Shown: positions 1 to 11,617 of the stretch, piece after piece | Position numbering within the stretch: the first letter of the stretch is position 1 | Layout: each line of letters opens with the position of its first letter | IMG/VR virus record: IMGVR_UViG_2622736468_000004 | DNA from: a virus | Lineage: Duplodnaviria > Heunggongvirae > Uroviricota > Caudoviricetes | DNA: 11,617 nucleotides | Reading direction: 5' to 3' (one strand) | Position numbers and translations under genes: made by a program | Notes under the pieces: generated by a model | Seen by the model: the letters and a program-made list of their open reading frames with translations, nothing else | Told to the model about the DNA's origin: nothing | Databases searched by the model: none

Positions 1-113
1 ATGATCCCGTTACCTTCCGGGACCAAAATTTGGCTGGTTGCCGGTATCACCGATATGAGAAATGGCTTCAACGGCCTGGCTGCGAAAGTACAAACGGCGC
101 TGAAAGACGATCC
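1..113 (+). pseudogene. 5' fragment (about 38 codons) of a second IS66-family tnpB/orfB copy, cut off at the insertion point of the complete IS66 element
   Basis: Bases 1-113 translate to [38 protein letters not shown], near-identical to the N-terminus of the complete orfB at 1739-2086 (minus). Nucleotide differences (e.g. ttaccttcc here vs ttatcttcc in the full copy) show it is a distinct copy. The frame ends at taa 115-117, supplied by the IS terminus. Confidence 0.7.
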
Positions 114-139
114 GTAAGCGTGCAGCAAGAACCGTATTG
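114..139. repeat. IS66 terminal inverted repeat (end proximal to tnpC)
   Basis: Matches the reverse complement of 2529-2554 at most positions across the first ~21 bp. Confidence 0.7.
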
Positions 140-150
140 ACGGGGATGTG

Positions 151-1689
151 TTATTCAGTCGGCAGTGCTACGCGCCAGGGGAGCAGTTCGCCGACCCGGT
201 TTATCGGCCAGTCGGCTATGACGTCAAGGACATAGCGGAGGTAGCTTTCTGGCTCCACTCCGTTCAGTTTGCACGTCCCGATCAGGCTGTACAGCAGCGC
301 TCCCCGCTCTCCTCCATGATCCGAACCGAAGAACAGGTAGTTTTTGCGGCCCAGACTGACCATCCGCAACGCATTTTCAGCGATGTTATTGTCCGCCTCA
401 GCCCAGCCATCATCTGCATAGTACGTCAGCGCCGGCCACTGGTTCAGGGCGTATGCGAACGCTTTCGCCAGTTCTGAGTGTCGCGACAGGGTTTTCATCT
501 TTTCACGCAGCCAGCTTTCCAGGGATTTCAGCAGCGGTTTCGTTTTCAACTGACGTTCGGCAAGGCGCTGTTCCGCCGTCATTCCCCTTATCTCTGCCTC
601 GATGGCGTACAGTTCGCCGATCCGTTTCAGCGCTTCCTCCGTCAGGGCTGACGGGGTGCGAACGTGCACATCGTGGATTTTACGGCGGGCGTGAGCCCAA
701 CAGGCGGCTTCCGTTATCCGGCCATCCCGGTACAGCTCGTTGAACCCGGCGTATGCATCCGCCTGCAGTACACCACTGAACCCCGCAAGATGGGTCTGCG
801 GATGGATGCCTTTTCTGTCCGGGCTGTAAGCGAACCACACCGCCGGCGCCAGCGTTGACCCGGCGTTACGGTCGTCACGAACATACGCCCACAACCGCCC
901 GGTCTTCGTTTTCTTATTGCCTGGCAACAGCACCGGGACAGGCGTGTCATCAACATGGAGCTTACCGTCAGTCAGCACATAGCCATGAAGCGCCTCTTCC
1001 AGCGGAGACAGCAGCCGGCAGCATGCATCCACCCAGCCCGACAGCAGTGAACGGCTCAGCTCCACACCTTGCCGGCCGTATATTTCTGACTGGCGATACA
1101 GCGGGGTGTGCTCTGCATACTTCGAGGTCAGCACGCGGGCCAGCAGCCCCGGTCCGGCGATACCCCGCTCGATGGGCCGCGAAGGTGCAGGTGCCTGCAC
1201 GATGGCATCGCACTGAGTACAGGCATGTTTTTCCCGTACCGTCCGGATAACCCGGAAGGCGCTACGCATCAACTCCAGCTGTTCGGCGGTATCCTCGCCC
1301 AGATAACTCAGTGAACCGCCGCAGTTCGGGCAGCACGGCGCCGCAGGCAACAGTCGCTTTTCGTCACGGGGTAGTGATTCAGGGAACGGCTTACGGGTGC
1401 GGGTCTGACGCAACGGACGCTGTACTGCCGGGTCATACACCCTACCAGTCAGCGTATCGCTCTCTTTCTGAAGCCGGTTCAGATCGGCTTCCATTTGTGC
1501 GATACGGCGGGAGACTTTTTCGGAACGACTGCCGAAGTTCATCCGGCGGAGTTTATCCAGCTGCGCCTGCAGATGGTCTATTTCGCGCTCCCGGTTGCTC
1601 AGCTTTTCCTGCAGGGCGTGGATCAGCGATTCCTGTTCGGCCAGGCGCTGTTTCAGCAGGAAGATGTCGTCAGAAGAGATGTCGTTCAT
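151..1689 (-). CDS. tnpC: IS66-family transposase TnpC (orfC), 512 aa
   Basis: Long minus-strand ORF with ATG start at 1687-1689. Has an N-terminal coiled-coil/leucine-rich region, a CxxC...CxxC zinc-ribbon (CCPNCGG...CTQCD) and a DDE-type core characteristic of IS66 TnpC. Sits between the IS66 IRs downstream of orfB. Confidence 0.9.
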
Positions 1690-1738
1690 AAGCCCGTATT
1701 TTACCGGGCTTATTCTGTGACAACCAGGATAAAGAGAT

Positions 1739-2086
1739 TTACAGCATGGTCAGGGAGGTCAGCAGCCGCTTAGGCTGTCGCCAGTCGATACCTTCCAGCA
1801 GCATCGCCAGCTGCGCCTGTGTAAGGAACACTTTGCCATCACGGGCTGACGGCCAGGCGAAGCGCCCACGCTCCAGCCGTTTGGTCAGGAGGCACAGTCC
1901 GTCACCGGTGGACCACAGCAGTTTAACCTGACTGCCGCTGCGGCCCCGGAAAATGAAAACATGGCCGGACATGGGATCGTCTTTCAGCGCCGTCTGTACT
2001 TTCGCAGCCAGGCCGTTGAAGCCATTTCTCATATCGGTGATACCGGCAACCAGCCAAATTTTGGTCCCGGAAGATAACGGGATCAT
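1739..2086 (-). CDS. tnpB: IS66-family accessory protein TnpB (orfB), 115 aa
   Basis: [33 protein letters not shown]... with ATG at 2084-2086; its start overlaps the orfA stop (ATGA-type overlap at 2083-2086), the typical IS66 orfA/orfB arrangement. Confidence 0.9.
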
Positions 2087-2462
2087 CGCTTCAGTTCCTG
2101 TATCAGCAGAGTCAGGAGCTTTTCGCTGACATTGCCATTGAAGCGGAGCGTCCCGTGCCGGAACGTTACCTCACAGCTGATACTGAGGGTTTTCGGGTCC
2201 TCTGCGAGCGATTCTGGCTGTTCGGCAGCTGCATCGAGAGTCACAGGAAGTAGCTGGGGCTCTCTGAAGAAGGTAATAGCAGCTTTCCCTCGCGCCATTG
2301 TTGTCGCCATTTGAACAACAGATTGGCGTTAATGCCATTTTCAAGAGCAAGTTTTGAGATGGATATCCCGGGTTCACAGGAGGCAGCAACGAGCTGCTGT
2401 TTAAATTCGGGAGGATAATTAGGGCAGCCTTTTCGCCTGCCGGGAGTCACATTTTTCTGCAT
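2083..2462 (-). pseudogene. tnpA: IS66 orfA (tnpA), split into two overlapping frames by an apparent 1-nt deletion in a homopolymer
   Basis: The N-terminal part (ORF 2241-2483; probable ATG at 2460-2462, MQKNVTPGRRKGCPNYPPEF...) and the C-terminal part (ORF 2083-2310, ...QLLPVTLDAAAEQPESLAEDPKTLSISCEVTFRHGTLRFNGNV...) overlap in different frames. Adding one G to the G4 run at 2256-2259 (C4 on the coding strand) would fuse them into one ~125-aa orfA reading ...SSESPQLLPVTL.... Confidence 0.65.
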
Positions 2463-2528
2463 ATCTGACACTTTGGTTCCCACTACTTATTTGGTGGACA
2501 CCACTTTGTCTAATTCGTCAGATTCTGA

Positions 2529-2554
2529 CCAGACGGTTCAGGCTGTACGCTTAC
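2529..2554. repeat. IS66 terminal inverted repeat (end proximal to orfA)
   Basis: Reverse complement gtaagcgtacagcctgaaccgtctgg pairs with 114-139. Confidence 0.7.
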
Positions 2555-3440: not shown

Positions 3441-3674
3441 ATGAAATCAAAAGACACCCTAAAGTGGTTCCCTGCGCAGCTTCCTGAAGTAAGAATTATC
3501 CTAGGGGGTGCTGTAGTGGAAGTAGCAAAACAGGGAAGACCTATCAATACCAGAACATTGCTTGATTACATTGAAGGAAACATAAAGAAAAAATCATGGC
3601 TGGATAACAAAGAATTATTACAAACAGCGATATCAGTTCTTAAAGACAACCAAAATTTAAATGGTAAAATGTAA
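3441..3674 (+). CDS. Hypothetical small protein (77 aa from the second ATG; the ORF track gives 88 aa from 3408)
   Basis: ORF 3408-3674. The internal ATG at 3441 is preceded by AAGGA (taaggaatatcttcATG), so 3441 is the favoured start. Basic, lysine-rich product with no family recognised by eye. Confidence 0.45.
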   Translation: MKSKDTLKWFPAQLPEVRIILGGAVVEVAKQGRPINTRTLLDYIEGNIKKKSWLDNKELLQTAISVLKDNQNLNGKM

Positions 3675-3922
3675 TATAATAAACTTACTTTTTTATCATT
3701 TTTCCACTTTAACAACATTTTGCTCCACTTTTCCACGACCAAACAACTTGAAATCTGGTTAAAATAACACGCAACACTATTCTTCTTCCTTGAGTCCGCC
3801 CGGAACTCGAAAAACAAACCGAGTTAAAGCCATTTTTCACAAAATCGATTTTGGGTCTCACCAAAATTACGGGGTTGCATACGCATTCGTTTATTTTCGA
3901 ACGTGTAGGTAATGACTCCAAC

Positions 3923-4426
3923 TTATTGATAGTGTTTTATGTTCAGATAATGCCCGATGACTTTGTCATGCAGCTCCACCGATTTTGAGAACGACAGCGA
4001 CTTCCGTCCCAGCCGTGCCAGGTGCTGTCTCAGATTCAGGTTATGCCGCTCAATTCGCTGCGTATATCGCTTGCTGATTACGTGCAGCTTTCCCTTCAGG
4101 CGGGATTCATACAGCGGCCAGCCATCCGTCATCCATATCACCACGTCAAAGGGTGACAGCAGGCTCATAAGACACCCCAGCGTCGCCAGAGTGCGTTCAC
4201 CGAATACGTGCGCAACAACCGTCTTCCGGAGCCTGTCATACGCGTAAAACAGCCAGCGCTGGCGCGATTTAGCCCCGACATAGCCCCACTGTTCGTCCAT
4301 TTCCGCGCAGACGATGACGTCACTGCCCGGCTGTATGCGCGAGGTTACCGACTGCGGCCTGAGTTTTTTAAGTGACGTAAAATCGTGTTGAGGCCAACGC
4401 CCATAATGCGGGCTGTTGCCCGGCAT
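3923..4426 (-). CDS. insB: IS1 InsB reading frame (expressed as an InsAB' fusion by -1 frameshifting)
   Basis: [53 protein letters not shown]... is canonical IS1 InsB. It overlaps insA in the -1 frame. Confidence 0.9.
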
Positions 4427-4620
4427 CCAACGCCATTCATGGCCATATCAATGATTTTCTGGTGCGTACCGGGTTGAGAAGCGGTGTAAGTGAACTGCAG
4501 TTGCCATGTTTTACGGCAGTGAGAGCAGAGATAGCGCTGATGTCCGGCGGTGCTTTTGCCGTTACGCACCACCCCGTCAGTAGCTGAACAGGAGGGACAG
4601 CTGATAGAAACAGAAGCCAC
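4345..4620 (-). CDS. insA: IS1 InsA (transposition inhibitor / N-terminal part of the InsAB' transposase), 91 aa
   Basis: [42 protein letters not shown]... is the classic IS1 InsA with a CxxC...CxxC zinc finger. Confidence 0.95.
4363..4369 (-). other. IS1 programmed -1 ribosomal frameshift site (A6C slippery heptamer) between insA and insB
   Basis: Plus-strand gtttttt at 4363-4369 is AAAAAAC on the coding strand, inside the insA/insB overlap. Confidence 0.8.
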
Positions 4621-4653
4621 TGGAGCACCTCAAAAACACCATCATACACTAAA

Positions 4654-5565
4654 TCAGTAAGTTGGCAGCATCACCCGACTTTCGAATACGGAATCATTTG
4701 TCACCCCCATTGATATGCAGGGTGTCTTCTTCCTGTATTTTTCGTGAAGGATTTTTACTGCAGCGTTGTTCCAGGTGACCTGATGGTGAATGCGTTTATG
4801 GCTGGCACCCATCAGTGAGATTTTTACGCACGACGGCGCATACATGACGGAGTAAAAACTTTTAACGTAGGTTCCGGAATCCAGATACAGCTCGGTCATT
4901 CCGCCGCTGTTTTTCTGCGTCTGTTTCTGCCCTAACTGGACAGCACCGATCGTCATAAACAATTCACCACAGCGGCCGAGATTCGTGTACGTATTCACAT
5001 CCTCGTTAATGCGCCCCATGAATGAGAACGGTCGATCAACCGAACAGATAAAGCTGTTCATTGCCTTGCGTTTCACCCACGAAGCATGGCCGCCATTGTC
5101 ACCAAGAAAATCCCCGCCCTGCGACATAGCGATGGAAAGAGCAGGTATTGATTCGTAGTACGCCAGCATTTCAGAAAGGATCGCATCCAGTTTCCTTATC
5201 GGAAAATAGGCCTGGTCATAGTTGCGATCCACCCGAAACTGGAACTCGTGATAATCATCATCGAGCTGAATGAAGTATTTACACCCGACCAGTTTTGCCT
5301 GGTCGAAACAGGCATTACGGGCGTAAAAAATTGAGCGGCGGTCACAGAAATTATCGGCTTCGTCAAAACGACTGGCGATATCGGCTTTGGAAAACACCAG
5401 CACCTGTTCACCAAATTCAGCCATGTACTGATGCCGTGTCTTATCTTCATCATCAACAACGATAAAAATTTTCCCGGTATAGCCAGCACGACGCAACGTC
5501 CGGTAAGTCAGAACTTTGTCCGGTCGCCCGTGAGTCAGAATAAAGGCGCAAAAATCATCACGCAT
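4654..5565 (-). CDS. Uncharacterised protein with a GT-A-like signature (tentative), translationally coupled to the upstream ParB-like gene; 3' end disrupted by IS1
   Basis: ORF 4654-5586; the favoured start is ATG 5563-5565 (MRDDFCAFILTHGRPDKV...), directly preceded by GAGGAGGAGG and overlapping the ParB-like stop (ATGCGTGA). The N-terminus has a beta-strand/THGRPD/...IFIVVDDEDKT layout and a later IQLDDDY, resembling nucleotide-sugar transferase DxD motifs. The last 6-7 codons and the stop (4654-4675) lie in IS1 sequence, so the native C-terminus is lost. Confidence 0.55.
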   Translation of the reverse strand: MRDDFCAFILTHGRPDKVLTYRTLRRAGYTGKIFIVVDDEDKTRHQYMAEFGEQVLVFSKADIASRFDEADNFCDRRSIFYARNACFDQAKLVGCKYFIQLDDDYHEFQFRVDRNYDQAYFPIRKLDAILSEMLAYYESIPALSIAMSQGGDFLGDNGGHASWVKRKAMNSFICSVDRPFSFMGRINEDVNTYTNLGRCGELFMTIGAVQLGQKQTQKNSGGMTELYLDSGTYVKSFYSVMYAPSCVKISLMGASHKRIHHQVTWNNAAVKILHEKYRKKTPCISMGVTNDSVFESRVMLPTY

Positions 5566-6349
5566 ATTCCTCCTCCTCACCACCATGCATGATCTCCACC
5601 ATGCGCTGCGTCATCCGGACAAATCCATTTTCAATAGCCTGCTGATAATCAATGATCACCAGCGCCGACTCCTCGAAAAAACACTGAATTTCAGCGGGGG
5701 CGTGAGCGTAATAGTCCGCAATTCTGCTGAAATTAAACACCGTGTGACGTTCTGCCGCACACAGGAGGAATTTCTCAATATCAGGCTCAAGGGACGCCGA
5801 ACGTATCCGGCTGATCAGCTCCTGAGTTTTCGTATCGTCGTACAGTTCACTGATATCCGGTTTACCGCCCGACGGCTCATAAACAGGCGTATCAATTTTC
5901 GTCGTATACGGCTCCTCCTCATTTCCTGTACCGGGCAAAACATCCGTCAACAGTTCATCAATTTCTGTCGGGATGAAGCCTGTCAGGGAGACATCAAAAT
6001 CAGCATTGATTAGGTCCGACAGCTCCATCCGCAACAGATCTTCATCCCAGCCAGCATTCATCGGCAGGCGATTATCTGCCAGGCGGTACGCCTTTTTCTG
6101 CTCATCCGTCAGGCCAGACAGAACAATGACCGGAACAGAATCCATTTTGAGCATTTCAGCCGCCATAACACGACTGTGACCCGCAATAATTTCGCCCTTT
6201 TCGTCAATCAGCACCGGATTAGTCCAGCCGAATTGCTTAATACTTTCTACCAGTTGTGCCACCTGCTCAGTACTGTGCGTCCTGGCGTTGTGCGCATACG
6301 GTGACAATTCTTGTAATGGGCGATAGACTATCTTTAATTTCTCGCTCAT
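5558..6349 (-). CDS. ParB-like nuclease-domain (ParB/sulfiredoxin fold) protein, 263 aa, acidic C-terminal tail
   Basis: ATG at 6347-6349 with AAGG upstream. The N-terminal region (PLQELSPYAHNARTHS...VLIDEKGEIIAGHSRVMAAEML) matches the ParB N-terminal domain, with an A-G-x-x-R-x-x-A-A box corresponding to the ParB GERRxRAA motif. The C-terminus ends in a GGEEEEYA acidic tail. Confidence 0.75.
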   Translation of the reverse strand: MSEKLKIVYRPLQELSPYAHNARTHSTEQVAQLVESIKQFGWTNPVLIDEKGEIIAGHSRVMAAEMLKMDSVPVIVLSGLTDEQKKAYRLADNRLPMNAGWDEDLLRMELSDLINADFDVSLTGFIPTEIDELLTDVLPGTGNEEEPYTTKIDTPVYEPSGGKPDISELYDDTKTQELISRIRSASLEPDIEKFLLCAAERHTVFNFSRIADYYAHAPAEIQCFFEESALVIIDYQQAIENGFVRMTQRMVEIMHGGEEEEYA

Positions 6350-6376
6350 ACAGCCTTGCTTTATGAATAAAACGCA

Positions 6377-6400
6377 CCCCAGCAGCCAGTGCTACTGGGG
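6377..6400 (-). terminator. Candidate terminator hairpin downstream of trkG (minus strand)
   Basis: Minus-strand RNA CCCCAGUAG-cacugg-CUGCUGGGG (9-bp stem with one G-U) followed after 4 nt by UUUUAUU. The non-adjacent U-tract makes it only moderate. Confidence 0.3.
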
Positions 6401-6486
6401 ACGGAGGTGTTGCTGGTAAAGTTAGGTATTGGATCAATGAGTGAGTCAACATAATATTAAACTCACAATTATAAATCAGCCATATA

Positions 6487-7944
6487 TTAGGAGCGCCAAA
6501 AAAAACCTGAAAACAATATAATAACAGGATAAATTTCAAGGCGACCAAGAATCATAGCTATGCACATTAAACATTTTGCAATGTCATTAAGCACTCCGAA
6601 TGACGATGCAGTAGCCCCAAAACCTAATCCCATATTATTAATACATGCAGCCACTGTTGCAAATGATGTAAGAAAATCATATCCCATACCATTTAACACC
6701 AGTATAAAAAACACCGTGAAGAGAGTATAAAGAAAAAAGAAACTCCATACAGACCTCATTACACGATCTGTAACTATCTTCCCTCCTACATTTACACTCA
6801 ACAACGCTCTGGGATGAGAAAGCTGATTTATCTCGTGTTTGCTTTGTTTGAAAAGTATAAGAAATCGAAGTGACTTAATTCCACCACAAGTTGAACCTAT
6901 ACATCCCCCAAAGAAACTTGACAACAGCAAAAACACTATCGTGTGCGTGGGCCAACTTGCATAATCCTGCGTAGCTAAACCATTATCAGTGAGCATGGAG
7001 CTGGCAAGAAAAAACGAATGAATAAAACTTCCATGCAAGTCATACATACCTATATGCCAGACCTGGAAAGAGGTAACAATGATCACCCCTAAGGCTATTA
7101 ACAGAAAGAAACGAAGTTCAATATCTCTGATTAAAGGTTTTATCGTTTTCCTGCTAATAACAATATACCAAAGAGTGAAGTTGAAAGCCGATAGCAGGGA
7201 AAAAGAACCAGCCACCAGCTCAACCAAATAGTTATTAAAATATCCGATACTCTCGCTATGAGTTGAGAAACCACCAAGCGAAACTGTGGAAATCCCGTGA
7301 CAAATAGCATCAAACAAAGGCATTCCTGCAAGTCTATAACAGACAATACAAGCAATACCTAATAAAGAATAAGTTATCCACAGTGTCCGTGACGTATCGG
7401 CCAGGCGGGGAGTGAGTTTGTCATCCTTAAATGGCCCCGGCATTTCTGACTGATAAAGCTTTGCACCACCAATACCCAATAATGGCAATACAGCAACCGC
7501 CAGAACAATAACTCCTAAACCACCTATAAAATTTAACTGTGACCGATAGTACAAATATGCCCGAGGTAATGAACTAACATCATCAATTACAGTTGCTCCT
7601 GTTGTTGTTATTCCAGAAACCCCTTCAAACAGAGCATCAATGAACGTTAAATTAAGTTCTGAGTCAATCCATAAAGGGAATGCACTAATAACAGAAAACA
7701 AAATCCAAAACATTACAATTATAATAAACCCATCACGGGTACGTAATTGAATGCCAGATTTCTTAGTTGTATACCACGCTCCGCCACCAATGCAAAAAAA
7801 TATAACGAAAGTTATAAAGAAAACGAACAGGCTTTTTTCTTTATAAAACAATGCTACAACCATTGGTGGCAACATTGAAAGACTATAGAGCCAAACCAGG
7901 AACCCACACATATGAGTAACAACTCTTACATGAGATGTATTCAT
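6487..7944 (-). CDS. trkG: TrkH/TrkG-family potassium uptake membrane protein (prophage-borne TrkG), 485 aa
   Basis: Polytopic membrane protein with repeated pore-loop motifs (e.g. GITTTGATV, GGFST, NGLATQD, GLGFGAT). From memory, the sequence beginning MNTSHVRVVTHMCGFLVWLYSLSMLPP corresponds to Rac-prophage TrkG of E. coli. The ORF track starts at a TTG (7962, with AAGGTGG upstream); the ATG at 7942-7944 gives the 485-aa form. Markedly AT-rich relative to its neighbours. Confidence 0.8.
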   Translation of the reverse strand: MNTSHVRVVTHMCGFLVWLYSLSMLPPMVVALFYKEKSLFVFFITFVIFFCIGGGAWYTTKKSGIQLRTRDGFIIIVMFWILFSVISAFPLWIDSELNLTFIDALFEGVSGITTTGATVIDDVSSLPRAYLYYRSQLNFIGGLGVIVLAVAVLPLLGIGGAKLYQSEMPGPFKDDKLTPRLADTSRTLWITYSLLGIACIVCYRLAGMPLFDAICHGISTVSLGGFSTHSESIGYFNNYLVELVAGSFSLLSAFNFTLWYIVISRKTIKPLIRDIELRFFLLIALGVIIVTSFQVWHIGMYDLHGSFIHSFFLASSMLTDNGLATQDYASWPTHTIVFLLLSSFFGGCIGSTCGGIKSLRFLILFKQSKHEINQLSHPRALLSVNVGGKIVTDRVMRSVWSFFFLYTLFTVFFILVLNGMGYDFLTSFATVAACINNMGLGFGATASSFGVLNDIAKCLMCIAMILGRLEIYPVIILFSGFFWRS

Positions 7945-8081
7945 ATCTAAATATTCTTTCAATTATAACCACCTTGCTGCAATATTATGATTATACTGTA
8001 TAAAATTTAACTCCTCTTAGATCTTACTTCACTGTTCCTTATGAAACAATCATCAAAATGAATCATATTGTAGTTAAGATT

Positions 8082-8546
8082 TTACTTTAAACACTGCTCG
8101 GTTATGTATTGCTGAGCACCTTCAAGTTGGGCCTGCATCATTACCAGTCGTTCCCGGAGGGTGAAATAATCCCGTTCAGCGGTGTCTGCCAGTCGGGGGG
8201 AGGCTGCATTATCCACGCCGGAGGCGGTGGTGGCTTCCCGCACTGACTGACAGACTGCTTTGATGTGCAACCGACGACGACCAGCGGCAACATCATCACG
8301 CAGAGCATCATTTTCAGCTTTCGCATCAGCTAACTCCTTCGTGTATTTTGCATCGAGCGCAGCAATATCACGCTGACGCATCTGCATGTCAGTAATTGCC
8401 GCGTTCGCCAGCTTCAGTTCTCTGGCATTTTTGTCGCGCTGGGCTTTGTAGGTAATGGCGTTATCACGGTAATGATTAACAGCCCATGACAGGCAGACGA
8501 TGATGCAGATAACCAGAGCGGAGATAATCGCGGTTACTCTGTTCAT
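8082..8546 (-). CDS. Rz: Rz i-spanin (inner-membrane spanin subunit)
   Basis: [60 protein letters not shown]... closely resembles lambda Rz as I recall it. The ATG at 8544-8546 overlaps the endolysin stop (ATGA). Has an N-terminal TM helix followed by a coiled-coil. Confidence 0.9.
8141..8326 (-). CDS. Rz1: Rz1 o-spanin lipoprotein, wholly embedded in Rz in the +1 frame
   Basis: [52 protein letters not shown]... has a lipobox (VVGC) and a proline-rich mature region; ATG at 8324-8326. The embedded architecture is the hallmark of lambda-type spanins. Confidence 0.85.
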
Positions 8547-9040
8547 TGCTGACCCCACAAACAGATTTCACGCTCAATCTCACGACGAGTCATGAGACCT
8601 TTCCATTGCTTACCGCCAGCATATGTCCAGCGACGTAGCTGATCACATGCGCCTTTGATATCGCCCTGGTTTATTTTGCGAAGAAGCGTCGATGTTCTGA
8701 AATTGCCAGCACCCACGTTGTAAACGAATGAGTAAAGAGCGCCGCGCGTTGTTTCCGGTATATCGACTTTGATGTACGGGTTAATTTGTCTGGCGACAGT
8801 GGCAAGGTCTTTATTCAAGAGTGTTTTGCATTCTGCTTTGGTATACGTTTTACCGAGCATGATGTCTTTTCCTGTATGCCCGTGACATACAGTCCATACA
8901 CCAACAATATCTTTGTATGGTATGTAGCTGACACCTTCCAGACCATCGTTACCACTTGGGCCAGTGATTAACACTGATGCTATAGCAATTGCTCCGCCAC
9001 CAATAGCAGCAGCAACGACTTTTCGTAATGATGGAGGCAT
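8543..9040 (-). CDS. R: SAR endolysin (phage-21 R-type, T4-lysozyme/GH24 fold), 165 aa
   Basis: The N-terminal Gly/Ala-rich weakly hydrophobic SAR domain ([21 protein letters not shown]) is followed by the catalytic triad E-x8-D-x5-T ([16 protein letters not shown]). The ATG at 9038-9040 overlaps the holin stop. Confidence 0.9.
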
Positions 9041-9255
9041 TATTCACCTCTCGCAGCCTTGCGCTTATCTTCTTTAATCTTGAAATAAAGGTTTGTCAGG
9101 TACGTCAGCAGGCCAAATACCAGACTACCCAGCACACCGATTGCAGCCCACTGTGACGGAGTTACTCTATCGAGCAACTGTAAAAACCAGTAGCCAGCAC
9201 TGCCTGCGGAGGTGCCGTAGGCAATGCCTGTTGAAATTTTGTCCATGGATTTCAT
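9040..9255 (-). CDS. S: Pinholin (phage-21 S21-type class II holin) with dual-start motif MKSM, 71 aa
   Basis: [71 protein letters not shown] has two TM domains and Met1/Met4 dual starts (antiholin/holin). GGAGGTGA Shine-Dalgarno upstream of ATG 9253-9255. The ORF track's longer 90-aa form (start 9312) lacks comparable support. Confidence 0.85.
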
Positions 9256-9289
9256 AGCCTCACCTCCGCACGGAACGGATGGCATAGTT

Positions 9290-9317
9290 ATTATGTGTAG
9301 GCTTTCAGACACATCAA
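9290..9317 (-). promoter_or_regulatory. Candidate sigma70-type promoter immediately upstream of the holin (minus strand)
   Basis: On the minus strand: TTGATG (-35; plus coordinates 9312-9317), a 16-bp spacer, then CATAAT (-10; plus coordinates 9290-9295), about 35 nt upstream of the S start codon. Hexamer match only. Confidence 0.25.
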
Positions 9318-9356
9318 TCAGAGCCTTAATTGATATATATGCTGGAGACGATGCAA

Positions 9357-9381
9357 TATAAAAAGCTCGCCGTAGCGAGCT
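9357..9381 (-). terminator. Rho-independent terminator (minus strand) between the TolA-like lipoprotein gene and the lysis cassette
   Basis: Minus-strand RNA AGCUCGC-uacg-GCGAGCU (perfect 7-bp GC-rich stem, tetraloop) immediately followed by UUUUUAUA. Confidence 0.55.
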
Positions 9382-9506
9382 AATAAAATGTATTTCTCTG
9401 ATATTATGTTTATTTGTATTAGCTCAGACTTGACATCACAGGTTTCGTATATAGAACATCATCAAATCTGTCAGTTTGCTATGAATGAGATATAGTAATT
9501 GAAGAG

Positions 9507-9902
9507 CTAACCTCGCATGTCAAAGCCAGATTTCTGAAAATCTCTGTAGACTTCCGGATTGTTGAAGGCCGGAAATTTGGCTTTATGAGCTGCGGACTTT
9601 ATCGCTTCGCAATAGGCTTTATCACCGTTACTGGTAGATATTTTTAACGCCGTGCCATCCTGAGAGAATTCCATATGCAACCTGCATTTTTTCCCTTTCC
9701 AGTTATGCGGCTCATCAAGTTTGGCATTAATTGCAGCTCTGATTCCCCGCGCTTGCGCCCCCCATTCATCCTGATCATCCCAGCGTCCTGAACTGCAACT
9801 ACCTGTAGCAGTAGTTTTGTGGCAATCTGAAGGGTGTAAAGGTGTGCATCCCGCAACAAAACCGACCCAAAAAGTCAACATAACGATTTTCTTTAATCCC
9901 AC
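9507..9902 (-). CDS. Prophage lipoprotein with a TolA C-terminal (domain III)-like domain, 131 aa
   Basis: GTG start at 9900-9902 preceded by GAGGAG (an in-frame ATG lies at 9879-9881). Signal peptide with lipobox (FVAGC). The C-terminal ~80 aa (KKCRLHMEFSQDGTALKISTSNGDKAYCEAIKSAAHKAKFPAFNNPEVYRDFQ) follow the TolA domain III pattern as I recall it (TCTLRIKLAPDGMLLDIKPEGGDPALCQAALAAAKLAKIPKPPSQAVYEVFK). Confidence 0.7.
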   Translation of the reverse strand: MGLKKIVMLTFWVGFVAGCTPLHPSDCHKTTATGSCSSGRWDDQDEWGAQARGIRAAINAKLDEPHNWKGKKCRLHMEFSQDGTALKISTSNGDKAYCEAIKSAAHKAKFPAFNNPEVYRDFQKSGFDMRG

Positions 9903-10053
9903 TTCTTGCTCCTCAATCCATTAAAATCTCAGCAATAGTAGTTGTTACGTCCGCCACTGGCTCAGAGCTGACTATCCGCTAAATTTAGCTCAGTGCCGTA
10001 GCTGTGTCAGAACAAACCTAAGCCGAAACCGTTTATTACAAAACAATAAATAT

Positions 10054-10225
10054 CAGGGTTTAAAATCCAGCACCCCATTTTGAAATACTTTATATACTTC
10101 CGGCGAAGGGGGGGCAGGTATATCAGCATTCTTTATCGCATTCATCGCTTCACGACATAAATCGAGGTCTCCACTTTCTCTTTTAACCTCCAGTAGAAGG
10201 CCATTCGGGGCCATATGCATTCTCA
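10054..10225 (-). pseudogene. 3' fragment (C-terminal 56 codons) of a second TolA-C-like gene, 5'-truncated by IS1
   Basis: Manual minus-strand translation of 10225 to 10054 gives ...RMHMAPNGLLLEVKRESGDLDLCREAMNAIKNADIPAPPSPEVYKVFQNGVLDFKP*, which matches the TolA domain III C-terminus pattern (...PLDFKP). The frame is open up to the IS1 boundary at 10226. Not in the ORF track. Confidence 0.6.
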
Positions 10226-10280
10226 GGTGATGCTGCCAACTTACTGATTTAGTGTATGATGGTGTTTTTGAGGTGCTCCA

Positions 10281-10556
10281 GTGGCTTCTGTTTCTATCAG
10301 CTGTCCCTCCTGTTCAGCTACTGACGGGGTGGTGCGTAACGGCAAAAGCACCGCCGGACATCAGCGCTATCTCTGCTCTCACTGCCGTAAAACATGGCAA
10401 CTGCAGTTCACTTACACCGCTTCTCAACCCGGTACGCACCAGAAAATCATTGATATGGCCATGAATGGCGTTGGATGCCGGGCAACAGCCCGCATTATGG
10501 GCGTTGGCCTCAACACGATTTTACGTCACTTAAAAAACTCAGGCCGCAGTCGGTAA
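10281..10556 (+). CDS. insA: IS1 InsA
   Basis: Identical 91-aa InsA sequence to the other copy. Confidence 0.95.
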
Positions 10557-10978
10557 CCTCGCGCATACAGCCGGGCAGTGACGTCATCGTCTGCGCGGAA
10601 ATGGACGAACAGTGGGGCTATGTCGGGGCTAAATCGCGCCAGCGCTGGCTGTTTTACGCGTATGACAGGCTCCGGAAGACGGTTGTTGCGCACGTATTCG
10701 GTGAACGCACTATGGCGACGCTGGGGTGTCTTATGAGCCTGCTGTCACCCTTTGACGTGGTGATATGGATGACGGATGGCTGGCCGCTGTATGAATCCCG
10801 CCTGAAGGGAAAGCTGCACGTAATCAGCAAGCGATATACGCAGCGAATTGAGCGGCATAACCTGAATCTGAGACAGCACCTGGCACGGCTGGGACGGAAG
10901 TCGCTGTCGTTCTCAAAATCGGTGGAGCTGCATGACAAAGTCATCGGGCATTATCTGAACATAAAACACTATCAATAA
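10475..10978 (+). CDS. insB: IS1 InsB reading frame (InsAB' via -1 frameshift)
   Basis: Canonical InsB sequence; the A6C slippery site lies at 10532-10538. Confidence 0.9.
10532..10538 (+). other. IS1 programmed -1 frameshift heptamer AAAAAAC
   Basis: ttaaaaaactc, within the insA/insB overlap. Confidence 0.8.
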
Positions 10979-10993
10979 GTTGGAGTCATTACC

Positions 10994-11617
10994 ACAGAAT
11001 TCAATGCATTAATGGAAAGTGAAAAAGGACAGAGCCAGAACTTGTGGAAATTTGCCGTTTACTCAGGACTTCGTCACGGGGAACTGGCAGCTCTGGCGTG
11101 GGAGGATGTGGATCTCGAAAAGGGAATAGTGAATGTCAGAAGAAACCTGACGATACTTGATATGTTCGGTCCCCCAAAAACAAATGCCGGGATCCGAACA
11201 GTAACACTACTGCAGCCTGCTCTTGAAGCACTGAAGGAGCAATACAAACTGACCGGGCATCATCGCAAAAGCGAAATCACCTTTTATCATCGGGAGTACG
11301 GCAGAACCGAAAAGCAAAAACTGCATTTTGTTTTCATGCCCAGGGTGTGTAACGGAAAACAAAAACCTTATTACTCGGTAAGCAGTTTGGGGGCAAGGTG
11401 GAATGCAGCAGTAAAACGTGCTGGTATTCGCCGCCGTAATCCGTACCATACGCGACATACTTTTGCCTGCTGGCTGTTGACGGCAGGAGCGAACCCGGCA
11501 TTTATAGCCAGCCAAATGGGGCATGAAACTGCGCAGATGGTGTATGAAATTTACGGTATGTGGATTGATGACATGAACGACGAACAGATAGCCATGTTGA
11601 ATGCGCGGTTATCGTAG
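10994..11617 (+). pseudogene. C-terminal catalytic fragment of a tyrosine recombinase (phage integrase family), N-terminus removed by IS1
   Basis: The frame is open from the IS1 boundary (TEFNALMESEKGQ...) to the stop at 11615-11617. Contains catalytic-domain signatures: ...NAGIRTVTL..., HTRHTFACWLL (H-x-x-R), GHETAQM, and the terminal tyrosine region VYEIYGMW. The N-terminal DNA-binding/core-binding domains are absent. Confidence 0.8.

Follow-up and report, generated by a model that had tools for sequence, protein, structure and literature searches.

Two IS1-associated deletions probably account for the Rac prophage remnant of Escherichia coli MRE600

Introduction

Deletions adjacent to IS1 have been known since the 1970s, originally from gal, and IS1 also forms compound transposons, with copies in direct orientation in Tn9 and in inverted orientation in Tn1681. 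In E. coli K-12, deletions by IS1-IS1 recombination and deletions after IS1 replicative transposition have both been experimentally documented (PMC7193553, Table 2).

Here we describe a window of 11,617 nt (the whole stretch of DNA analysed), which is 100% identical to CP014197.1, the chromosome that one paper names as that of E. coli MRE600; the genome paper of the strain mentions neither IS1, nor Rac, nor prophages. As in the known E. coli IS1 deletions, complete IS1 copies stand at the putative deletion points without a duplication, and kilobases including prophage DNA are missing. Unlike those cases, MRE600 has two scars in opposite orientation 5.5 kb apart in one prophage, whose parental states were not recovered. 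With the K-12 Rac it shares the ttcA site, intR beside ttcA, trkG cargo by the lysis genes, ynaK, and ydfK/ynaE at the far end. It differs from K-12 in lacking the entire early region (recET, kilR, sieB, racR and the replication genes) and the tail-fibre/pinR end, and in having a full-length ParB gene, a TAGT gene, a truncated intR and IS1-marked losses. As in Tn9, Tn1681 and the insertion in the Rac of OSUCMP42NDM, two intact IS1 copies surround a few kb of cargo; unlike these, MRE600 has no outer duplication, a native cargo context and no second location, and the likeness is structural only.

The Rac remnant in MRE600

Judged from its sequence, the window is the Rac prophage in its original place, with uspF on one side and ttcA on the other. 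About 9 kb of the prophage remain in MRE600, with trkG and the lysis genes still present. The following prophage features are found in the window:

2664-2706, no strand: Rac attachment-site repeat at the uspF-side prophage end (self-comparison of locus L004, CP014197)
3441-3674, plus strand: ydfK/ynaE-type cold-shock gene, intact, followed by no other Rac gene up to the left IS1 (gene call, PF27475; annotated ydfK in relatives)
4654-5565, minus strand: TAGT (TET-associated glycosyltransferase, 'GREB1-related') gene, 3' end lost (PF20691, E=1e-34; alignment to AJ1)
5558-6349, minus strand: ParB/Srx N-terminal domain gene, full-length ynaK type, 263 aa (PF02195; annotation in relatives)
6487-7944, minus strand: trkG potassium transporter gene, 485 aa, intact (Pfam TrkH, E=5e-145; gene call; annotated trkG in all relatives)
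8082-9255, minus strand: whole lysis cassette (Pfam Phage_lysis, Phage_lysozyme, Phage_holin_2_1; gene calls)
8082-8546, minus strand: Rz spanin of the cassette
8543-9040, minus strand: RrrD-type lysozyme of the cassette
9040-9255, minus strand: EssD-type holin of the cassette
9507-9902, minus strand: TolA C-terminal-domain gene, 131 aa, intact (PF06519)
10053-10225, minus strand: 3' remnant of a second tolA-like gene (complete form 429 nt; 5' ~256 nt missing)
10994-11617, plus strand: intR remnant, nt 613-1236 of the Rac integrase gene, with ttcA next, past the window end

The partner of the attachment-site repeat (43 nt, 93% identical) lies 59-101 nt past the right end of the window, within the start of ttcA. 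The repeat pair bounding the prophage, the intR remnant followed by ttcA, and the collinear order TAGT, ParB, trkG, Rz, R, S ... int are those of a Rac-type lambdoid prophage. It is not a complete inducible prophage, having no early region, no xis, no 5' half of int and no genes for head, tail or terminase.

The two IS1 copies

A repeat search of the window returned inverted-repeat arms at 3908-4678 and 10223-10993, within which lie two IS1 copies:

3908-4675, minus strand: left IS1, complete, 768 bp, IRR end outward (3908) and IRL end toward the block; insA 4345-4620, insB 3923-4426
10226-10993, plus strand: right IS1, complete, 768 bp, IRL end toward the block and IRR end toward intR; insA 10281-10556, insB 10475-10978

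The block between them (4676-10225) is 5,550 bp long, and the whole IS1-bounded unit 7,086 bp. By exact comparison, the oppositely oriented copies are identical at 767/768 positions, the sole difference being a private substitution in the left copy that changes InsB Met to Leu. A third MRE600 IS1, located between ompN and nifJ beyond the window, is identical to the right copy. Both copies have the length and terminal repeats of IS1 (GGTGATGCTGCCAACTTACTGAT and GGTAATGACTCCAACTTATTGAT, 18/23 matching), intact insA and insB (InsA 91 aa, InsB 167 aa), and the A6C motif AAAAAAC of the -1 frameshift at IS1 position 307. The product matches PF03400 (DDE_Tnp_IS1), the IS1-type DDE transposase.

The 9-bp flanks are GAACGTGTA and CGACTTTCG for the left IS1, and GCATTCTCA and ACAGAATTC for the right IS1. 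No target-site duplication is present at either copy, and direct, inverted and outer-outer pairings of the flanks all mismatch. The same test detects duplications of 8 bp at the third MRE600 IS1 and in PSJ-23, of 9 bp at both simple insertions of SCZE5 and at GF31, and of 9 bp at the outer ends of the IS1B-bounded compound transposon in the OSUCMP42NDM Rac. The missing 8-9-bp duplication bears on the history of the two IS1 copies and not on the type of element. These results bear out the initial annotation, which had described two complete, inverted 768-bp IS1 copies around a 5.55-kb block and no target-site duplications; its first flank, given as AAACGTGTA, was one base off from GAACGTGTA, and its conclusion that the flanks mismatch holds.

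The four IS1 junctions

All four junctions fall exactly at IS1 termini, and three of them cut genes, as had been claimed: intR, the second tolA-like gene, and the TAGT gene adjoining the ParB gene. At the outer right junction, intR lacks its first 612 nt, so that the arm-binding N-terminal 204 codons are gone and the catalytic domain is retained. At the inner right junction, the tolA-like gene is reduced to the last ~173 of its 429 nt; its position has an uncertainty of 1 bp, as G, the next native base, is also the first base of IS1. At the inner left junction, the TAGT gene lacks its last 43 nt and its frame continues 22 nt into IS1, giving a fusion of 303 aa in place of the native 310 aa. 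The outer left junction is intergenic, 233 nt past ydfK/ynaE and, in relatives, 84 nt ahead of the pinR start.

Searches of 5,426 complete E. coli genomes with 120-nt queries gave no one-piece ungapped match to any of the four junctions. The nearest IS1 ends elsewhere in these genomes are 1 or 13 bp off in intR, and 7 or 12 bp off in the ydfK-pinR spacer. None of the four positions has an ancestral simple insertion in these genomes or in the other loci fetched, and two scans of metagenome contigs gave zero matches to the predicted simple-insertion junctions in intR or tolA. Among the junction products, the TAGT-IS1 fusion is the only usable marker protein. The 201-aa int' and 53-aa tolA' products were rejected as markers, being called in many genomes from point-mutated int and degenerate tolA.

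Comparison with Rac-type prophages of other strains

PSJ-23, AJ1, ET490 and PSS-13 align with the window in order and on one strand, and AJ1, PSS-13 and D9 are likewise collinear with its gene order. In the Rac-type phage vB_EcoS-683R6 (locus L007), window positions 4673-9270 correspond to 18577-23174 and positions 10994-11617 to 40787-41410, with 99.1% identity over 4.6 kb and with order and strand unchanged with respect to int. A shared ISEc22 was considered as a sign of close relationship and rejected; in D9 and CUWW10 it is located elsewhere, within the tail-fibre assembly gene.

ET490 resembles MRE600 in overall layout, with ydfK', IS1 on the minus strand, late genes, IS1 on the plus strand, and int'. 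Like MRE600, ET490, PSS-13, CUWW10, 2018-01-1CC, VE-T9, AJ1 and PK8566 have IS1 copies without duplications at Rac deletion points, whereas the position of every junction in these seven strains differs from those in MRE600. VE-T9, AJ1 and PK8566 have a common IS1|intR junction, 1 bp from that of MRE600, with differing left endpoints. The IS1 copies at this junction are mosaic: that of PK8566 resembles IS1A as far as about position 260 and belongs to a divergent type over 262-764. The mosaic copies and the nested deletions anchored in intR indicate that IS1-IS1 recombination acts at the Rac locus.

Counted across genomes that are not independent of one another, the orientation of IS1 at the intR flank is the same in 17 and really opposite in about 4, and at the ydfK flank it is the same in 23 and opposite in 24.

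Two probable deletions, each marked by one IS1

Complete IS1 copies, junctions exactly at their termini, lack of duplications and collinearity with intact relatives are all observed in MRE600. Two independent IS1-associated deletions, each leaving one IS1 as its scar, very probably cut Rac to its present ~9 kb. The right IS1 would link intR, from its nt 613 on, with the 3' part of the tolA-like late gene, and the left IS1 would link the TAGT gene, at its 3' end, with the ydfK-pinR spacer. Estimated from relatives that are each rearranged or partial, the right deletion would have removed about 17 kb (the Q/nin region, the replication, immunity and recET genes, xis, and the 5' half of intR), and the left deletion at least 18.5 kb (pinR, the tail-fibre, tail, head and terminase genes, and the last 43 nt of the TAGT gene). 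It had been proposed in the initial annotation that two simple insertions do not explain the arrangement; this is supported. Its suggestion that an IS1-linked deletion of the early and head regions placed an integrase remnant beside late genes is likewise supported, and extends to the tail region, which has also been lost.

As to how the DNA was lost, the odds are perhaps even that two IS1 copies, each of which had inserted in the prophage, in direct orientation to one another, underwent RecA-type recombination. Such recombination would leave a single IS1 with one flank from each parent copy. The three MRE600 IS1 copies are at most 1 nt apart, so that a mosaic would be invisible in any recombinant IS1. 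Because no ancestral junction was found, the order of events and the choice of deletion mechanism rest on inference.

The surviving copies are mutually inverted, and recombination between them cannot delete the block, consistent with its persistence. Excision of the prophage is no longer possible, since xis is lost and int truncated, and the late genes are left without their Q-dependent control region.

Alternative explanations

A different last step is a serious contender, if one to which we give somewhat less than even odds. Within Rac, one IS1 would have inserted on each side, and its end would then have attacked a target in the same molecule (intramolecular replicative transposition, or 'adjacent deletion'), removing the intervening DNA, keeping one original junction, and yielding the same product as IS1-IS1 recombination. 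This departs from the recombination account in the last step only, needs two insertions against four, and agrees with junctions lying exactly at IS1 termini without a duplication. Repeated one-sided deletion would be expected to give what VE-T9, AJ1 and PK8566 show, a constant IS1|intR junction and left endpoints that vary, and deletions after IS1 replicative transposition are on record in K-12 (PMC7193553). However, the mosaic IS1 copies at that shared junction are not made by transposition alone; nor has any of the four MRE600 junctions been seen as an ancestral simple insertion in the complete genomes and metagenome contigs searched.

A broader reading of the locus, which we consider unlikely, is that IS1 preferentially inserts and recombines in Rac at ttcA, with a narrow hotspot in intR, that different lineages have been pared to the same trkG-lysis core, and that the MRE600 pair may be transposition-competent for trkG, the lysis cassette and the ParB/TAGT genes. 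IS1 junctions in intR lie at nt 569, 613, 614 and 626 in unrelated strains, and the recurrence of IS1 at the Rac locus is the only part of this reading that is demonstrated.

Inversion of the block, either by recombination of the inverted IS1 copies or by a duplicative inversion that created the second copy, had also been suggested, and is very improbable. An inverted pair identical at 767/768 positions is a substrate for inversion, and a real IS1-bounded inversion of recT'/recE' is known in the Rac of strain 2018-01-1CC. In MRE600, however, the block has the same gene order and strand with respect to ydfK and intR/ttcA as in intact Rac-type prophages, and two independent assemblies agree on its orientation. 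No reversed segment with exchanged or inverted duplication halves is seen: the outer left flank is not the reverse complement of the inner right, nor is the inner left that of the outer right. Relatives with the same gene order and no IS1, the kind of genome that the initial annotation had singled out as telling against its reading, are found for the block; they make inversion needless, and deletion is still required.

That the 7,086-bp unit arrived or moves as a compound transposon with trkG and the lysis genes is scarcely credible: although the ends, insA and insB are intact in both copies, and IS1-bounded units do transpose (e.g. the IS1B-bounded cargo in the OSUCMP42NDM Rac, with its outer duplication), GAACGTGTA and ACAGAATTC, which flank the pair on the outside, do not match, the cargo and its two flanks adjoin one another in the native Rac arrangement, 80% of the window occurs in no complete E. 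coli genome searched and 80% of the block in no plasmid searched, no second genomic context was found among these genomes and plasmids, and the exact TAGT-IS1 fusion protein is confined to the two MRE600 assemblies. The two IS1 copies have ends that look functional by sequence alone, and transposition of the pair as a compound unit is conceivable in principle.

Significance of the MRE600 remnant

The MRE600 Rac is an undescribed instance of a well-known process, the ordinary decay of a prophage through mobile elements, and leaves current knowledge of IS1 and of prophage decay unchanged. It provides a worked example of the reading of IS scars, for which other strains supply positive controls of simple insertion, compound transposition and inversion. 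Its value lies chiefly in annotation, accounting for a 9-kb non-excisable Rac stump in a strain that is a standard source of ribosomes and tRNA. Without recET, kilR, sieB and the Rac repressor, this stump still holds trkG, an intact-looking holin-lysozyme-spanin set and the ParB/TAGT pair.

The Rac remnant of E. coli MRE600

CP014197.1, identified in a paper as the genome of E. coli MRE600, matches the window at 100% identity, and no complete RefSeq E. coli genome was found to cover 80% of the window. The gene order (zntB, ynaL, dbpA, ttcA, int', IS1, block, IS1, ydfK/ynaE, IS66-family element, uspF, ompN, a third IS1, nifJ) is that of the Rac prophage site. The attachment-site repeat, 43 nt long, is found at 2664-2706 and has its second copy within the ttcA start just outside the window; these repeats delimit a Rac remnant of ∼9 kb, including 1.5 kb of IS1. 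The annotated features are:

151-1689, minus strand, tnpC of an ISEc22-type IS66-family element
1739-2086, minus strand, tnpB of the same element
4654-5565, minus strand, TET-associated glycosyltransferase (TAGT) gene
5558-6349, minus strand, ParB-N gene
6487-7944, minus strand, trkG
8082-8546, minus strand, Rz
8543-9040, minus strand, lysozyme
9040-9255, minus strand, holin
9507-9902, minus strand, TolA-C gene
10053-10225, minus strand, 3' remnant of a second tolA-like gene
10994-11617, remnant of intR, right of the right IS1

Every gene from TAGT through the tolA-like remnant is thus on the minus strand. The ParB-N-domain and TAGT genes lie side by side (4654-6349); intact relatives have this pair flanked by trkG on one side and the small terminase subunit on the other. 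No TET/JBP gene was seen next to the pair.

The ISEc22-type element is complete (∼114-2553), lies between uspF and the Rac end, and adjoins a second, partial copy of its tnpA-tnpB end in inverted orientation; the region as a whole is window 1-2554 plus 468 nt to its left (13012-16034 of L004, the locus from CP014197). The inverted arms are 582 nt long and 99% identical, and window 1-113 is the tip of one of them. D9 and CUWW10 carry the element elsewhere, in the tail-fibre assembly gene. CP014197 and the NCTC assembly of MRE600 differ by two 1-nt indels across 20.9 kb, one of them in ISEc22 tnpA (∼2259), which is broken into short ORFs in the window and forms an intact frame of 126 aa in the NCTC assembly; one of the two assemblies is probably in error here.

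The IS1 pair and its junctions

A repeat search returned a single long inverted repeat in the window (arms 3908-4678 and 10223-10993), within which reading of the ends and exact comparison of the copies define two complete 768-bp IS1 elements (3908-4675 and 10226-10993), identical at 767 of 768 positions. At the one remaining position, the left copy encodes Leu instead of Met in InsB. In both copies the terminal repeats of IS1 match at 18/23, the InsA and InsB frames are 91 and 167 aa long, and the frameshift motif AAAAAAC lies at IS1 position 307. The transposase is on the minus strand in the left copy and the plus strand in the right, so that the IRR ends face outward and the IRL ends face the 5,550-bp block 4676-10225. 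Repeat search and exact comparison together confirm in all essentials the inverted, complete IS1 pair around a 5.55-kb block described in the initial annotation.

The 9-bp flanks are GAACGTGTA and CGACTTTCG for the left copy, and GCATTCTCA and ACAGAATTC for the right copy. In 9-bp comparisons, no match was found between the two flanks of either copy, between the outer flanks, or in either inversion-type pairing. The earlier reading of these flanks, one base off in the first of them, was correct in finding no duplication in any pairing.

Junctions were placed to the bp by alignment to relatives, which bears out the earlier claim that three of the four cut genes. IntR retains nt 613-1236 and has lost its arm-binding half; the tolA-like gene, 429 nt where complete, retains its last ∼173 nt, the boundary being ambiguous by 1 bp since the next native base is G, as is the first base of IS1; and the TAGT gene has lost its last 43 nt, its frame continuing 22 nt into IS1. 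Only CP014197.1 and an NCTC assembly encode the fusion protein of this inner-left junction. The outer-left junction falls between genes, 233 nt past ydfK and 84 nt short of where pinR starts in PSS-13. None of the four junctions is present in 5,426 complete genomes or the other fetched loci, and the two predicted partner junctions had zero matches in metagenome contig scans.

Two deletions in a resident prophage

In PSJ-23, AJ1, ET490 and PSS-13, the left flank, block and int remnant align with the same strand and order as in the window. The Rac-type phage record vB_EcoS-683R6 (partial) is the least degraded of the references, with the order tail, head, terminase, TAGT, ParB, trkG, Rz, R, S, Q region, replication, cI/cII, Rac repressor, kil, recE, recT, ralR, xis, int, ttcA. 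Window 4673-9270 corresponds to its 18577-23174, and window 10994-11617 to its 40787-41410. The right IS1 stands where ∼17 kb of early and regulatory DNA and the initial 612 nt of intR have been lost. The left IS1 takes the place of all DNA between the 3' end of TAGT and pinR, with the terminase, head and tail genes, which amounts to at least 18.5 kb by this partial record. We therefore interpret the locus as two deletion scars in an in-place Rac prophage, with much higher confidence than we attach to any choice of mechanism.

The four junctions all coincide exactly with IS1 termini, an indication that the events depended on IS1 and were not random illegitimate recombination. Two routes, both documented by K-12 deletion experiments (PMC7193553, Table 2), would give the same product: homologous recombination of two directly oriented IS1 insertions, and intramolecular IS1 transposition, the classical adjacent deletion. 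The three IS1 copies of MRE600 are too similar to show a recombinant. An IS1-intR junction at nt 614, one base from that of MRE600, is common to VE-T9, AJ1 and PK8566, with different, nested left endpoints (upstream of holin in VE-T9, TehB in AJ1, and sieB' in PK8566). The AJ1 IS1 has 65 differences from the MRE600 IS1, spread over the whole element; that of PK8566 is IS1A-like to about position 260 and of a divergent type at 262-764; and that of VE-T9 is IS1A-like except for a divergent patch at 262-363. These nt-614 copies (L002 12557-13324; L032 and L033 8293-9060) are mosaics of IS1A and a ∼8% divergent type and show directly that IS1-IS1 recombination or conversion acts at this locus. Recombination is for this reason ranked slightly ahead for MRE600: we give about an even chance to deletion between directly oriented IS1 copies, and regard intramolecular transposition as a serious, somewhat less probable route.

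The IS1 pair around the block has the anatomy of a compound transposon. That the unit has moved is argued against by the outer flanks, which are not a duplication, by the cargo and flanks, which are native Rac neighbours, and by the unit itself, found neither in complete RefSeq E. coli genomes (at 80% of the window) nor in plasmids, where matches span only about half of the block, around trkG. Inversion of the block, offered in the initial annotation together with or instead of deletion, is unneeded given the collinear relatives. Both inversion-type duplication patterns are absent, and block orientation agrees in two independent MRE600 assemblies; the deletion part stands on the missing early, head and tail DNA and the collinear relatives.

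The identical flank comparison was applied to IS1 copies elsewhere as controls.

Flank comparison in control IS1 copies
MRE600, third IS1 between ompN and nifJ: 8-bp duplication
PSJ-23 IS1: 8-bp duplication
SCZE5, two IS1 copies: 9-bp duplication each (two simple insertions)
GF31, ompN-side IS1: 9-bp duplication
OSUCMP42NDM, IS1B pair around foreign cargo: 9-bp direct repeat outside the pair (genuine compound-transposon insertion into Rac)
ET490, PSS-13, CUWW10 and 2018-01-1CC IS1 copies: no duplication of any kind

The OSUCMP42NDM insertion (L036 15603-21226) has a 4-kb cargo with truncated ISEcp1 transposase and Hok/Gef-type toxin genes, and its direct repeat is TGCACTCCT. In 2018-01-1CC (L034 19274-23872), recT' and recE' are reversed between two inverted IS1 copies without duplications, which is a true IS1-bounded inversion within Rac. 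The tests can thus detect duplication, compound insertion and inversion, and none was detected for the MRE600 pair. In PSS-13 (L006 18194-21713), an inverted IS1 pair surrounds a tape-measure gene fragment, and the outer flanks AGCGACGTC and AGCGACGCT match at 7/9 in direct orientation, a likeness that may be due to chance or to a decayed duplication.

IS1 in Rac prophages

IS1 ends adjoin intR at nt 569, 613, 614 (three strains, different IS1 variants) and, in opposite orientation, 626 (L002, L015, L016, L032, L033), with further ends upstream at nt 358 and other positions; a short AT-rich intR stretch may be an IS1 hotspot. Adjacent IS1 pairs inside Rac were inverted in 9/9 cases (L005, L006, L016, L030, L034, L036, L037 and the window), which are not counts of independent events. 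The only direct pair seen is the left IS1 of MRE600 with its ompN-nifJ IS1, 6.2 kb apart, and the excess of inverted pairs may have arisen because recombination eliminates direct ones. IntR is also called as two ORFs in several genomes without a nearby IS (5370-6606 of L008, L009, L014 and L017), one of ∼199 aa with the arm-binding domain and the other the same 201-aa catalytic part; point mutation has thus frequently inactivated the Rac integrase already.

IS1, Rac and prophages go unmentioned in the MRE600 genome paper, and the MRE600 instance therefore seems undescribed. It is a case of IS-mediated prophage decay, a well-known process in a well-known prophage.
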